Made by a program: the position numbers. A DNA stretch of 64,000 nucleotides from Escherichia coli (GTDB lineage: Bacteria; Pseudomonadota; Gammaproteobacteria; Enterobacterales; Enterobacteriaceae), in NCBI RefSeq assembly GCF_041248615.1, contig NZ_CP158426.1. One strand, given 5' to 3'. Shown here piece by piece: positions 48,001-54,000 of the stretch; position 1 is the stretch's first letter; every line of letters starts with the position of its first letter.

Positions 48001-51000
48001 GTCAGATTTTCTTTGGTTAAGCAGAGTAACGAACCACTTTCATTATCGGCTTTTACCCATTCCAGTATTAACGTTTGTGGCAACATATTTTTATTTATCT
48101 GCACACGAACGAGATATTTACCAGGAGTAATATAGCCTTTTTTCTCAAAACGCGAGATATCGATGTGGATTTGCCCCTATATTTCCAGACACCTGTTATC
48201 ACTTAACCCATTACTGGCCTGCTGCCGCAGATATTCCCGTGGCGAGCGATAACCCAGTGCACTATGCGGATGCCATTCGTTATAATGCTCGAACGCCTCT
48301 GCAAGGTTCTTTGCTGCCGTTAACCCGTCTGGTTTAGGCATGATACTGATGTAGTCACGCTTTATCGTTTTCACGAAGCTCTCTGCTATGCCGTTACTCT
48401 CCGGACTCCGCACCGCCGTGTTCTTCGGTTCAAGCCCCAATATCCGGGCAAACTGCCGTGTTTCATTAGCCCGGTAGCATGAACCATTATCCGTCAGCCA
48501 CTCTACTGGAGACGCCGGAAGCTCGTTGCCGAAGCGGCGTTCCACCGCTCCCAGCATGACGTCCTGTACTGTTTCACTGTCGAAGCCGCCCGTAGTGACT
48601 GCCCAGTGCAGTGCCTCACGGTCACAGCAGTCCAGCGCGAACGTGACTCGCAGTTTTTCTCCGTTATCACAGCGGAACTCGAACCCGTCAGAGCACCATC
48701 GTTGATTGCTTTCTTTCACGGCCACTTTGCCAGTATGTGCCCGTTTCGATGGCGGTACAGCGGTTTTTCGCTCAAGCAACAGCGCATTCTGGCGCATGAT
48801 CCGGTAAACACGTTTGGCATTGATCGCAGGCGTACCATCAAGTTCGGCCTGTCTGCGAAGCAGCGCCCATACCCGACGATAACCATACGTGGGCAGCTCT
48901 CCGATAACATGGTGTATACGGAGAAGCACATCCGTATCATCTGAGTGACGGCTGCGGCGACCATCTTTCCAGTCATCGGTTCGTCTGAGAATTACGTGCA
49001 ACTGCGCACGCGACACCCGGAGACAACGGCTGACTAAGCTTACTCCCCATCCCCGGGCAATAAGGGCGCGTGCGCTATCCACTTTTTTGCACGCCCGTAT
49101 TCAACGGCTTCTTTAAGGAGTTCATTTTCCATCGTTTTTTTGCCGAGCAGGCGCTGGAGTTCTTTAATCTGCTTCATGGCAGCAGCAAGTTCAGAGGCAG
49201 GAACGACCTGCTCTCCTGCGGCCACAGCAGTAAGACTTCCCTCCTGGTATTGCTTGCGCCAGAGAAATAACTGGCTGGCTGCCACACCGTGTTGCCGGGC
49301 AACAAGGGAGACCTTCATTCCCGGTTCAAAACTCTGCTGAACAATAGCGATCTTTTCCTGTGTAGTACGCCGTCTGCGTTTCTCCGGTCCTAAGACATCA
49401 ATCATCTGCTCTCCAATGACTAGTCTAAAAACTAGTATTAAGACTATCACTTATTTAAGTGATATTGGTTGTCTGGAGATTCATGGGGCCAGTCTACGAT
49501 GTTTTCACGGTCTTCAACGTCAATCATATCGACGTTGAATTCCACGGCGTGGACAGGTAAAACGAAGAGTAGCGAACACACAACGCCAGACAGGGCAATT
49601 TTTATTGCATGGGATAACTTATCCCCGGTAAACGTGTTTTTATTGTTCATAAAAATCCATTTCTAAAAAGGCCCAAAGTTGCCGATGAAATTTCATCGGC
49701 TTTATCGCCTGACGTTGTGTAGTTACTAATTGCCGCTTACTTGTAGTCGAGTACGTAATTAGCTTGTGCCTGCACGTTACCTGGGGTCGCGGTGCGTCCC
49801 AGAGATTCCATACGGGCTTTAAAGTTCAACTCCTGGTAGGAGTTAGTCGTCGGGAAGTTGATAGTGATTGGAGTGCCAAGAGTCACGTTGGTGTTGTCTG
49901 ATTTCACCAGACGTACGCCTACATCAGTTGCGCCGCCGATGTTACCTTCCAGAGTGTTTTTAAGCAGGTTGGAATCGGTAGCGTCAACACTGGCAGAACT
50001 AAAGGTGATTTTGACTTTATCAACAGTATTAGTGCCGTCAGATAAAATACAATCCTGCAAGTGAATGGTGACATCTACAGGCAGAGATTTCTGACCGCTT
50101 TTTAATACGGTATCAGCAACTTCACCGAGGTTTATTGTCTGATCTTCATCACCAGGAGCAATAGAACAAGGTGCATCGATAACTTCACCTTTAAAAGTAA
50201 TTTTACCGGAACCCTGATTAGCATCGTCAGCAAGAGCGTTAAAAGCAACGCCTGATAACAATGCGGTTGCGAACATAGATAACAATGTTTTTTTTAACAT
50301 GACTATAATCCTTTATAAATTAGAAAGGCTATGAATGAGGAAAATATAGGTTTGAATCTGATATTAATTCCGCTATGGAGATTACCATAGTTAGAGATGA
50401 CTTAGCTTGTTATTAATATTAAATACTGATTAAGTAAAACTTAAATCATACACTTTCATTATATATTAAGATGCGTATACCTGGATATTTGTTGTATATC
50501 GTTGTGAATAATAATTTTTTTGTATGAGTTGTGGTGAAAAAATGAACATCCATTGACAAAAATTTACGTATGATATTGTAAGGTGGTAAAGTATATTTAT
50601 TAAAACGAGTAGGGACGCAAGAATCGTGAAGATATAATATATATCTAGTGGTGCTTATTAAGTTTTATTATTAATTAGTAATGTTTTATCGGGGGATAAT
50701 ATATATTAATAGTCTTGGTTGTTCTTTTTTTAACCAGATATGGTATATAATACAACACTTACTATGATCGAAATCATATACTTGATCCAGAATTATGCGA
50801 GTATATGAATGTATTCAACGATGGATATGTGAAATTTTAACGCTAAATGTTTAGTAATGTTAAATTTTGAAGGTGAAAAGGATGTTTATTGCCTGGTACT
50901 GGATTGTATTAATTGTTCTACTGGCTGGTGGCTATTTTCTTCATCTTAAACGTTACTGTAAAGCTTTTCGCCATGACAGAGATGCGCTGTTAGCTGCCCG

Positions 51001-54000
51001 AAGTAAATTAGATAAACGCTCCGATAAAGAAGTGTTTGAAAAGCATCAATAATACCTTTAATAACGATACAGATGTTGCCTTTAGCAATGGGCAACATCT
51101 GTTATTATCGTCTTTAACCAATTCCCGCCGTTTGTAGCAGCACTAAACTAAATCCCATTACTGACATCCCACACAGCACGCCATAGCTGGGATTATTATT
51201 GGGATCAATCTCTTTGGCTAACGGCATTAATTCGTCCACGGAGAGCGCCACCATGATTCCTGCAACCGCCGCCATGATTGCCGCCATGACCACCGGGGAA
51301 ATCATGCTACCAAGGATTAACCACGCCAGCACGCCGCCGAGAATTTCCGCCAGCCCAGAAATCCCCGCCCACAGAATTGCGGTGCGTTTAGACCCCGTTG
51401 CCGCGTAAACCGGGCCTGCAACCGCCAGACCTTCAGGAATATTGTGTAACGCAACGGCCAGTGCGATGCCAAAGCCCAGCTCCAGGTTGCTGCTCGCAGT
51501 GACAAAGGTGGCAATCCCTTCCGGGAAGTTATGCAGACTGATGCCGAGAGTGAGCAGAATGGCTGTGCGCTTGATCGATTTTGGCAACGGCTGCACCGAT
51601 TTTTGCATTAAATCCTGCGGATGCGCATGCGGCAACATGCGGTCCAGACCAAAATAGCCCAGCAGACCAAAGATAAACATCCCGTAGCCCAGAACGGGGG
51701 ACATTCCTTCGGCGGCTAATGCGGCAGGGAGCATCTCCATCAATGAGATGAGCAACATGATCCCCGCCGCAAATCCTAGCGAAAACGCCAGTAAGCGGTT
51801 CGAGGGTTTTTGCCCGAGAACGCCGAGAAACGCGCCAATAAACGTGGCTGCCCCCGCCAGTATGGTCAGAATGAGAGGTACTGACATCGACAACTCCTTA
51901 TAAATCTTCACCTTCAGGCAGATCGTCAAAATAACTGATGATCATCATCATTGTTATCCGGGTTCTTACTCCGCCGAACAAGCGTATTGTGAGGATATCA
52001 AAATGACACCTTTAGTTAAGGATATCATCATGTCTTCAACACGTATGCCAGCATTGTTTTTAGGTCACGGTAGTCCGATGAACGTGCTGGAAGATAATTT
52101 GTATACCCGCAGCTGGCAGAAGTTGGGGATGACATTGCCACGCCCGCAAGCGATTGTGGTGGTTTCGGCTCATTGGTTTACCCGTGGAACAGGAGTGACC
52201 GCGATGGAGACGCCGCCCACGATTCATGATTTTGGTGGCTTCCCGCAGGCGCTGTACGACACCCATTATCCGGCTCCTGGATCACCGGCTTTGGCTCAGC
52301 GATTGGTTGAGCTGTTAGCGCCAGTGCCTGTCACACTGGATAAAGAAGCCTGGGGCTTTGACCACGGTTCCTGGGGTGTGCTGATTAAGATGTATCCTGA
52401 CGCCGATATTCCGATGGTGCAGTTGAGTATCGACAGTAGCAAACCTGCCGCCTGGCATTTCGAAATGGGGCGCAAACTGGCAGCGCTGCGGGATGAAGGA
52501 ATAATGTTGGTCGCCAGCGGTAACGTGGTGCACAACCTGCGTACGGTGAAGTGGCACGGTGATAGTTCACCGTATCCTTGGGCGATGTCGTTTAATGAGT
52601 ATGTGAAAGCGAATCTGACGTGGCAAGGGCCGGTAGAGCAGCATCCTCTGGTGAATTATCTCGACCATGAAGGTGGCGCGTTATCGAACCCAACGCCAGA
52701 GCACTATCTGCCGTTGTTGTATGTCTTAGGTGCGTGGGATGGGCAGGAGCCAATTACCATTCCGGTCGATGGTATAGAAATGGGCAGTTTAAGTATGTTG
52801 TCGGTGCAGATAGGCTAATAATTACCGGATGGCGAGTGCCATCCGGTATCATGGCTTATTCAACAAAAATATGTGGATAAAACCGAGACATATCCTGGGT
52901 GATCAATGCACGGTCTTCACGAATGCCAATTCCGGCAGGTTGATCGTTCACCAGCCAGCTACCAATCAGCATATAGCTGTCGCCGAATTTCGGTAACGGG
53001 TGGAATTGCTGAACAATCATCCCTTCTTCGCCATACGGACCTTCCGCTGCTTCAATGGTTTTGCCGTTCTCAATGATCGACACGTTTGCGCCTTCACGGG
53101 AGAAGATCGGTTTAACCACATATTTTTCCATTTGCGGATGATCATCTTCCGCAAAATAAGCGGGCAGCAGGTTCGGGTGATTCGGGAACATCTCCCACAG
53201 TAGCGGCAGAAGCGCTTTGTTGGAGATAATGCTCTTCCACGCTGGTTCCAGCCAGCGTACGCCTGCATCCTCCAGCTTGGTGGAGAACATCTCACGCAGC
53301 ATAAATTCCCACGGATACAGCTTGAACAGGTTAGAAATCACCTGATCCTGTAAATCCGTGAACTGACCTTTTTCGCCTAAACCGATATCGTCGATGTAGA
53401 GGAATTCAGTAGCGATTTCAGCTTCTGTCGCGCAGTCCTGCAAATACTGAATGGTTCCGCGATCTTCCACCGTGTCGCGACAGCAGGTGAGATGCAGCAA
53501 CTGGAAGCCATACTGTTCACGCAGCTCGACAAAGCGATCGATCAGCTTCTCTTGCAGACTGTTAAACTGGTCGCTGCCTTCCGGCAGGTTACCGGCGTTA
53601 AGCTGATCTTCCAGCCAGATCCACTGAAAGAATGCGGCTTCATACAGTGACGTTGGCGTATCGGCGTTATTTTCCAGAAGTTTAGGTTCGCCAGTACCAT
53701 CCCACGCCAGATCAAGACGCGAATAAAGCGATGGCTGGTGAGTCAGCCATGACTGGCGCACAAAACTCCAGGTGTGTTTTGGAATGCGGAATTTGGTCAT
53801 CAGCTCATCGCTGGCGATCACTTTTTCAACCACTTTCAGGCACATCTGGTGCAGTTCGGCGGTGACTTCTTCCAGCTTTTCAACCTGGGCGAGGGTCAAC
53901 TTGTAGTAAGCATCTTCACACCAGTACGGTTCGCCGTACATGGTGTGAAAATTGAAACCGTATTCGTGGGCTTTTTCGCGCCAGTCCGGGCGCTCGGTAA

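Follow-up and report, generated by a model that had tools for sequence, protein, structure and literature searches.

The stretch of DNA analysed here comprises 64,000 nucleotides of Escherichia coli (NCBI RefSeq assembly GCF_041248615.1, contig NZ_CP158426.1) and is hereafter referred to as the window. We focused on the interval 50301-51113, which lies between the first gene of a fimbrial operon and zupT and which an earlier note, made from the sequence alone, had read as an H-NS-silenced fimbrial promoter holding a small open reading frame (ORF). The interval consists of 2 separate modules lying side by side and joined at approximately 50762, namely, the control region of the Yqi fimbrial operon and the core gene yqiD. 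The AT-rich feature and the small gene are both confirmed and the interpretation put on them is supported, but the earlier note had missed the name of the gene, the insertion sequence (IS) that splits the usher gene of the operon and the junction between the 2 modules. The elements themselves, that is, the operon, yqiD and the binding of H-NS in a sister strain, were already known. The features of the locus are as follows.

48167-49496, minus strand: IS2-like insertion of 1,330 bp, 95.5% identical to K-12 IS2, with a 5-bp target duplication (CGATG); splits the usher gene
49737-50300, minus strand: Yqi/Ygi (extraintestinal pathogenic E. coli [ExPEC] adhesin I) major subunit gene, first of the operon; 187 amino acids (aa), identical to CFT073 c3791 / WP_000915007.1
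50301-50762, no strand: Yqi operon control region, AT-rich (26.4% GC), absent from K-12-type genomes; 3 deeply divergent alleles in E. coli
50429-50446, no strand: 18-bp motif GATTAAGTAAAACTTAAA, approximately 130-146 bp upstream of the fimbrial ATG; candidate cis-element
50629-50671, minus strand: island conserved in all 3 alleles, holding a sigma-70-like TTAATA-16-TATTAT (50661-50634); candidate yqi promoter
50763-50778, no strand: invariant palindrome TATGATCGAAATCATA, also written TATGATCNAAATCATA; exact 5' edge of the yqiD module
50763-50881, plus strand: yqiD upstream module, conserved in both E. coli haplotypes, Citrobacter and Intestinirhabdus
50882-51052, plus strand: yqiD, Yqi-linked allele; 56 aa, the same as CFT073 c3790 / WP_001296421.1; predicted single-pass small membrane protein
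51069-51102, no strand: hairpin between the convergent yqiD and zupT, with a perfect 12-bp stem (51069-51080 with 51091-51102)
51114-51887, minus strand: zupT, ZIP-family metal transporter, convergent with yqiD

Identity of the two modules

The 901 bases around the interval have perfect (100%) matches in dozens of complete E. coli chromosomes, and in the matching records the interval sits between a minus-strand gene annotated as "fimbrial-like protein" and zupT. Alignment of the window with K-12 and 2 other Yqi-positive haplotypes revealed that homology to K-12 begins abruptly at approximately 50763 and that all DNA to the left of this point belongs to the fimbrial block, with the AT-rich region being located directly 5' of the minus-strand major-subunit gene (49737-50300). 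The product of this gene matches the Pfam family Fimbrial (1.1e-23) and the NCBIfam family PRK09733 (344 bits). The operon proteins display only 59%, 57%, 51%, and 37% identity to YgiL, YqiG, YqiH, and YqiI of K-12, respectively, and the major subunit is the same as that of CFT073; on these grounds, we assign the operon to the Yqi/Ygi (ExPEC adhesin I) chaperone-usher type, represented by c3791-c3794 of CFT073. The subunit, usher, chaperone, and adhesin genes follow each other in the orthologous order, and the block, which is approximately 5.5 kb long (6.8 kb here with the IS), is located between ribB and yqiD, zupT lying beyond the latter. The gene order in the window is glgS, ubiK, flavin mononucleotide (FMN) riboswitch, ribB, the operon (adhesin, chaperone, usher, and major subunit), the AT-rich region, yqiD, and zupT, as compared with zupT, yqiD, ribB, FMN riboswitch, ubiK, ygiL, yqiG::IS2, yqiH, yqiI, and glgS in K-12. 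The Yqi operon is present at this site in about 991-992 of the 5,426 complete E. coli genomes (approximately 18%). In the literature, Yqi figures as an adhesin of both avian and uropathogenic strains (PMC2771359, PMC8545135), and the Yqi operon and the "Yqi-like" operon of K-12 have been reported to be mutually exclusive and to occupy different loci (PMC3559732).

The second module could be named. In identical genomes in RefSeq, a 171-nt "hypothetical protein" is annotated at exactly the coordinates of the small ORF, which the earlier note had left unassigned. When the 813-bp interval was used as a query in a DNA search, all but one of the 5,426 E. coli genomes matched part of it; approximately 4,400 of them match only query positions 463-689, at approximately 81% identity, and the feature annotated there is "yqiD: protein YqiD." At the protein level, the product of the ORF is 69% identical to K-12 YqiD (b4756) in a BLASTP comparison (37/54 aligned residues, covering 54 of the 56; E = 4e-27), which identifies the ORF as a divergent allele of yqiD. 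Synthesis of YqiD in K-12 has been demonstrated by others: the protein was detected by chromosomal sequential peptide affinity (SPA) tagging, was subsequently added to the K-12 annotation, and also scored positive when ribosome profiling with tetracycline was used as a screen (VanOrsdel et al. 2018, PMC6001520). The remaining features reported previously for the ORF hold as well. It is preceded by a plausible ribosome-binding site (GAAGGTG, 50869-75, 6 nt 5' of the ATG), its product has one predicted transmembrane helix, and a strong hairpin lies downstream of it.

The AT-rich control region and its proposed silencing by H-NS

The GC content is 0.299 over 50301-51113 and 0.269 over its intergenic part (50301-50881), compared with 0.509 over all 64 kb. 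Among 581-bp stretches, the one starting at 50288 has the lowest GC (0.260, the first percentile being 0.337), and the region forms the GC minimum of the window. Within 50301-50881 there are fifteen A/T-only runs of at least 8 bases, and TpA steps occur at 14.8 per 100 bp, a 3.3-fold enrichment over the 4.4 per 100 bp found window-wide. The extended AT- and TpA-rich DNA that is characteristic of H-NS-silenced promoter regions is hence present, with 26.9% GC over 581 bp.

The claim that the region is an H-NS-silenced fimbrial promoter is supported by chromatin immunoprecipitation sequencing (ChIP-seq) of strain CFT073, which documents binding in a related allele and not silencing in the strain under study. 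In the study of Hustmyer et al. 2022 (PMC9765446), sheet 1E ("H-NS bound gene") of Data set S1 includes 4 genes of the locus, all bound by H-NS in the wild type and also bound by StpA: c3790 (171 nt, H-NS occupancy of 0.346), c3791 (564 nt, 0.274), c3792 (2523 nt, 0.090), and c3794 (1050 nt, 0.253). The 2 highest occupancies belong to c3790 and c3791, both of which flank the AT-rich region, and this fits nucleation there. The major subunit and the small-ORF product of CFT073 are identical to those encoded in the window, and the intergenic core is 84% identical. We propose that H-NS, together with StpA, would nucleate on the TpA-rich control DNA and spread over the first fimbrial gene and yqiD, and that the resulting H-NS/StpA filament would silence the Yqi operon under laboratory conditions. 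Tight silencing would fit the observation that serum elicited no response from the Ygi-Yqi locus in 2 ExPEC strains (PMC13245861). We put the probability of the complete two-module explanation, including both the silenced control region and yqiD, at roughly 80%.

Several observations weigh against this explanation. The ChIP table is resolved per gene and not per intergenic region, and binding was measured on the CFT073 allele, from which the window differs in the core, whereas another common allele is largely unalignable. The H-NS high-affinity 10-mer TCGATAAATT is not enriched (1 match at ≤2 mismatches versus a shuffle mean of 2.2), although this result weighs little because the motif is not required for H-NS binding. 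Neither expression data from an hns mutant showing derepression of yqi nor a counter-silencing cue was found in the literature searched. Scanning for the sigma-70 consensus yielded 6 promoter-like sites versus 5.8 in shuffled sequences; because such sites are no more common than in the shuffles, the promoter assignments are weak and are to be taken as conservation-based suggestions only. For the second module, protein synthesis is known from the SPA tag and ribosome profiling for the K-12 allele only; no yqiD transcription start site appears in the accessible parts of the Cappable-seq and SMRT-Cappable-seq supplements; and a simple terminator scan called no terminator at 51069-51102, where the T-tract is weak.

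The control region is highly variable among strains. The approximately 992 Yqi-positive genomes fall into 3 core classes, the window type (approximately 114 genomes, at least 90% identity), the CFT073 type (approximately 351 genomes, approximately 84% identity), and a third type (approximately 527 genomes), of which only the last approximately 130 bp can be aligned to the window. The window and the third type are 56% identical over 50400-50600, compared with 96.6% for the subunit gene and 99% for yqiD. More generally, the core (50380-50760) displays 54-78% identity between alleles at the loci compared, including those of Z0117EC0055, strain 9, and CFT073, and the flanking genes 96.6-100%. The core thus diverges well beyond what the flanks would lead one to expect, which points either to recombinational replacement of the segment or to very rapid evolution in place. 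Short islands are nonetheless conserved inside it, namely, 50301-50323, which contains the leader and the Shine-Dalgarno sequence of the subunit gene, 50378-50396, and 50629-50671. The sigma-70-like element at 50634-50661 in the last island is the best candidate for the promoter of the yqi operon, which probably lies in this island. The 18-bp motif GATTAAGTAAAACTTAAA also occurs upstream of the paralogous K-12 ygiL, at an equal distance from the ATG. A scan of 49600-51400 with Rfam covariance models returned 2 chance-level matches only (E = 0.16 and 0.39), both far below the gathering scores.

The fast divergence of the core (54-78% versus 90-100% identity in the flanks) could also mean that its AT-richness is that of a poorly constrained, horizontally acquired spacer, in which case the binding of H-NS would be incidental and the operon would be controlled mainly by other means, for instance by a specific activator or by regulators whose genes lie elsewhere. 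The lack of enrichment of the H-NS 10-mer and the missing serum response in the 2 ExPEC strains are in line with this possibility, whereas the H-NS and StpA occupancy measured on c3790-c3794 in CFT073 speaks against it, and the islands at 50378-96 and 50629-71 argue against a wholly free spacer. We consider this alternative unlikely. Considerably less probable still is a phase-variation switch, either an invertible promoter of the fimS type or a Dam/Lrp switch of the pap type. Phase variation is common among fimbrial operons, the 3 equal-length, poorly alignable alleles could in principle reflect inversion, and GATC sites are present at 50766-50769 and 50783-50786. However, comparison on both strands showed the core alleles to be collinear and in a single orientation, with only trivial minus-strand matches of ≤13 bp, no strong inverted repeats bracket a segment, and neither a recombinase gene nor a gene for a pap-type regulator is adjacent, which led us to reject a fimS-type element. 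As for the GATC sites, both fall within the yqiD module rather than the fimbrial part, and the second is not conserved in K-12 or Citrobacter. Silencing by H-NS, with StpA, remains our preferred account of the control region.

Conservation of yqiD and of its upstream module

Comparison of the window and K-12 alleles over codons 1-38 yielded a proportion of synonymous differences (pS) of 0.67 and of nonsynonymous differences (pN) of 0.11 (dN/dS of approximately 0.07), and the first 38 codons are under strong purifying selection; over codons 39-56, pN is approximately 0.47, as in an unconstrained tail. Homologues in a large protein database come from Escherichia and Citrobacter only, and a DNA-pattern scan of one genome per species detected yqiD nowhere but in E. 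coli, an Escherichia cryptic clade, Intestinirhabdus alba, and 15 Citrobacter genomes. Conservation of the ORF in related genomes, constraint at the codon level, and ribosome footprints on the K-12 orthologue, through which the earlier note had proposed to check the gene, thus all favor a genuine small membrane-protein gene. The window ORF agrees with the YqiD family in homology over the full length, in size (56-58 aa), in its single predicted N-terminal transmembrane helix, and in its position on the ribB side of zupT, with which it is convergent. Among 17 homologues, 23 columns are invariant (M1-L10, Y18, H21, K23, R24, C26, A28-R30, and D32-L36), and the C-terminal approximately 18 residues vary freely.

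YqiD is predicted to be a 56-aa single-pass membrane protein with a helix at residues 2-20 followed by a variable charged tail. Residues 2-20 have a mean Kyte-Doolittle hydropathy of 2.16, and 5 Lys/Arg residues follow this hydrophobic stretch within residues 21-35, with the invariant juxtamembrane segment H21-x-KRYC-x-AFR-x-DRDAL predicted to lie on the cytoplasmic side of the membrane. AlphaFold2, supplied with the family alignment, returned a single continuous helix spanning residues 2-55 (pLDDT of 87-90 in the first 20 residues). Searches of Pfam, NCBIfam, and the PDB with the peptide gave only sub-threshold matches typical of transmembrane helices (DUF2621, DUF4381, and MerE) and no PDB match. 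The label DUF4051, carried by one Citrobacter record, was discarded because the family did not match the peptide, as was the literature on B. subtilis yqiD, an unrelated namesake (ispA homologue).

Upstream of the gene, 19 distinct sequences from Escherichia, Citrobacter, and Intestinirhabdus were compared. Conservation starts at the palindrome whatever lies further upstream, and the approximately 120 bp that run from it to the ATG show stronger conservation than the last third of the yqiD coding sequence. The palindrome was compared by eye with the consensus sequences of Fur, Zur, NikR, FNR, CRP, PhoP, and ArcA, and none fits; the best match, to the Fur box (12/19 positions), is not meaningful in AT-rich DNA. 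The module further contains a TTAACG-17-TTAAAT element (50837-50865) and a 7-bp inverted repeat (50811-17 with 50822-28) that displays compensatory changes in 3 pairs (11 cells; a value attained in none of 500 shuffles). Its variants are ATACCTA/TAGGTAT in some Citrobacter, ATATCC/GGATAT in K-12, and GTATTCA/TGGATAT with G-T pairs in the window, and the C. werkmanii/youngae/braakii group lacks it altogether; the repeat could act as an operator or form a hairpin in the 5' untranslated region. RNAalifold applied to the 19 upstream sequences did not yield a credible common fold (-4.55 kcal/mol, without compensatory pairs), and the weak pairing that it proposed between TAAATGTTT and the start-codon region was set aside, as it reflects a direct repeat. 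A seven-codon upstream ORF, MFSNVKF (50847-50870), the stop codon of which overlaps the yqiD Shine-Dalgarno sequence, is in frame in 14 of the 19 sequences; it has neither a Shine-Dalgarno sequence of its own nor a codon-position variation pattern and is probably a by-product of conserved DNA motifs.

The same upstream region has figured in a study of expression variation. Positions 50682-50912 of the window correspond exactly, with perfect primer matches, to the reporter fragment "yqiD-MT" of a 2025 preprint (bioRxiv 10.1101/2025.06.10.658842), in which yqiD is among 4 genes whose expression change agrees across a genome-wide association study, a promoter model, and a reporter, with a K-12 fragment serving as the wild-type comparator. 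It follows that the "variant" promoter of that study is the Yqi-linked haplotype rather than a point variant.

The 2 E. coli alleles of yqiD are saturated at synonymous sites and are as divergent from each other as Escherichia is from Citrobacter. The window allele is always linked to the Yqi operon, as all of the approximately 991 genomes with the Yqi control region cover the full 813-bp query. The simplest interpretation is a single old haplotype, made up of the Yqi block and its neighboring yqiD allele, that either entered or persisted as a unit. Intragenic recombination between the 2 alleles is also on record, the database protein P0017 combining a window-type N-terminus with a K-12-type tail.

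The constant linkage could alternatively be explained if YqiD worked with the fimbrial operon, for instance by regulating Yqi fimbriae or assisting in their assembly, given that genomes of the K-12 type match only the 463-689 segment of the query. This appears hardly credible: the conserved core of YqiD is kept in K-12-type E. coli and in many Citrobacter in which yqiD has no fimbrial operon as its neighbor, the linkage follows more simply from the 2 lying side by side on a single imported haplotype, and the recombinant allele P0017 exists. The weakest alternative, a chance frame in AT-rich DNA, could appeal to the shortness of the ORF, its lack of a Pfam or NCBIfam family, and its annotation as "hypothetical protein" in Yqi-positive genomes, but can practically be dismissed, considering that the ORF is the orthologue of a K-12 gene with a detected product, that its frame, its length, and 23 of its residues do not vary among Escherichia, Citrobacter, and Intestinirhabdus under the purifying selection described above, and that its GC content of 38% is well over the 26.9% of the upstream intergenic part.

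The neighborhood and comparison with known systems

At its 3' end, yqiD meets zupT. The 2 genes adjoin each other in all 16 loci with downstream DNA, of 18 genome loci examined. The hairpin between them has folding energies of -27 and -24.7 kcal/mol on the 2 strands (z = -8.1 and -5.0, respectively), and a hairpin with a different stem sequence is found at the equivalent position in K-12 and C. amalonaticus; it is probably a bidirectional terminator of the yqiD and zupT transcripts. Of the 774 nucleotides of zupT, 49 differ between the window and K-12, yet the encoded protein is the same; such synonymous divergence is unusually high within a species. On the other side of the block, ribB is 98% identical to its K-12 counterpart.

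The IS2-like element interrupts the Yqi usher gene approximately 51 codons in, so that no intact usher is encoded; NZ_AP022087.1 carries an intact usher gene and is otherwise 99.5-100% identical to the window. Given the split usher, the operon is probably non-functional in this strain. The paralogous usher gene of K-12, yqiG, is also split by IS2 near its 5' end, at a different site, and the 2 paralogous operons, judging from the insertion sites, have been inactivated independently in a like manner. The ribB/yqiD junction (43937-50762 in the window) is a variable slot, which is empty in K-12 and many Citrobacter, occupied by the Yqi operon in approximately 18% of E. coli, and filled by assT-dsbL-dsbI in several Citrobacter and Intestinirhabdus; some E. 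coli carry assT-dsbL-dsbI beyond ygiD instead. Between ribB and the adhesin gene lies another strong bidirectional terminator-like hairpin, AAAATGCCGGG-GTGTT-CCCGGCATTTT (43958-43985, -27 kcal/mol). Since it stands in for the ribB terminator of K-12, the fimbrial block brings its own.

The name yqiD can now be given to the RefSeq "hypothetical protein" that approximately 18% of E. coli genomes encode (c3790 in CFT073), and the interval provides a clean example of a horizontally acquired adhesin operon, silenced under our interpretation, that abuts directly on the promoter of a conserved core gene. The adjacency of a silenced operon could explain strain-to-strain differences in yqiD expression. 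The zupT pairing and the invariant His and Cys residues supply a testable lead on YqiD, but none of these findings alters the current understanding.

Among known systems, the closest to the proposed silencing are the horizontally acquired AT-rich fimbrial loci that H-NS and StpA silence, such as yad in K-12 and ExPEC (PMC13245861). The likeness resides in an AT-rich promoter, a cryptic chaperone-usher operon, and H-NS and StpA occupancy by ChIP in a related strain, whereas the Ygi-Yqi locus differs in its lack of a response to serum. The yqi operon of avian pathogenic E. coli (APEC) strain IMT5155 and c3791-c3794 of CFT073 share the gene order and the ribB-zupT location with the window, and CFT073 moreover has an identical major subunit; the window differs in that its usher is split by the IS2-like element and its control region is another allele. 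The "Yqi-like" operon ygiL-yqiG-yqiH-yqiI of K-12 is a paralogous chaperone-usher operon with a similar gene order, an IS2-interrupted usher, and the same 18-bp upstream motif. Unlike the window operon, it is located at the glgS/ubiK locus; its proteins share only 37-59% identity with those of the window, from which it is absent. K-12 YqiD resembles its counterpart in the window in size (56 aa), zupT-convergent position, N-terminal hydrophobic helix, KRYC-AFR-DRDALL segment, upstream module, and downstream hairpin, but its C-terminal 18 residues are essentially unrelated, the ribB terminator rather than the Yqi control region lies 5' of the palindrome, and RefSeq gives the yqiD name to K-12 YqiD (b4756) and not to the window allele.

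What YqiD itself does can be approached through its neighborhood, and our best guess is that it modulates a membrane protein, for which gene context offers ZupT as the sole candidate. The tail-to-tail pairing of yqiD and zupT in Escherichia and Citrobacter and the invariant His21 and Cys26 suggest, from context, a link to metal transport, itself a long shot. The latter 2 residues are predicted to sit where the helix ends on the cytoplasmic side, and a further Cys20 is present in most Citrobacter (CHMKRYC), residues 20-26 corresponding to window positions 50939-50959; His21 and Cys26, with or without Cys20, could form a metal site in an oligomer. On a bolder version of the idea, which we regard as a long shot, YqiD would serve the metal importer ZupT as a lineage-restricted accessory subunit or regulator, the H-NS filament on the Yqi island would alter yqiD expression, and the control-region alleles would be selected regulatory variants. 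If so, Yqi-positive lineages, mostly ExPEC, would express yqiD differently, fitting the published cis-variant effect, and the 3 alleles would be under selection rather than subject to drift. Small membrane proteins that modulate transporters include MgtS, MntS, AcrZ, and KdpF. YqiD is similar to these proteins in size, in having a single helix, and in the adjacency of a transporter gene, although it has no sequence similarity to any of them, yqiD is convergent with zupT and not co-transcribed with it, and zupT is more widespread than yqiD, the DNA pattern of which is confined to Escherichia, Citrobacter, and Intestinirhabdus.

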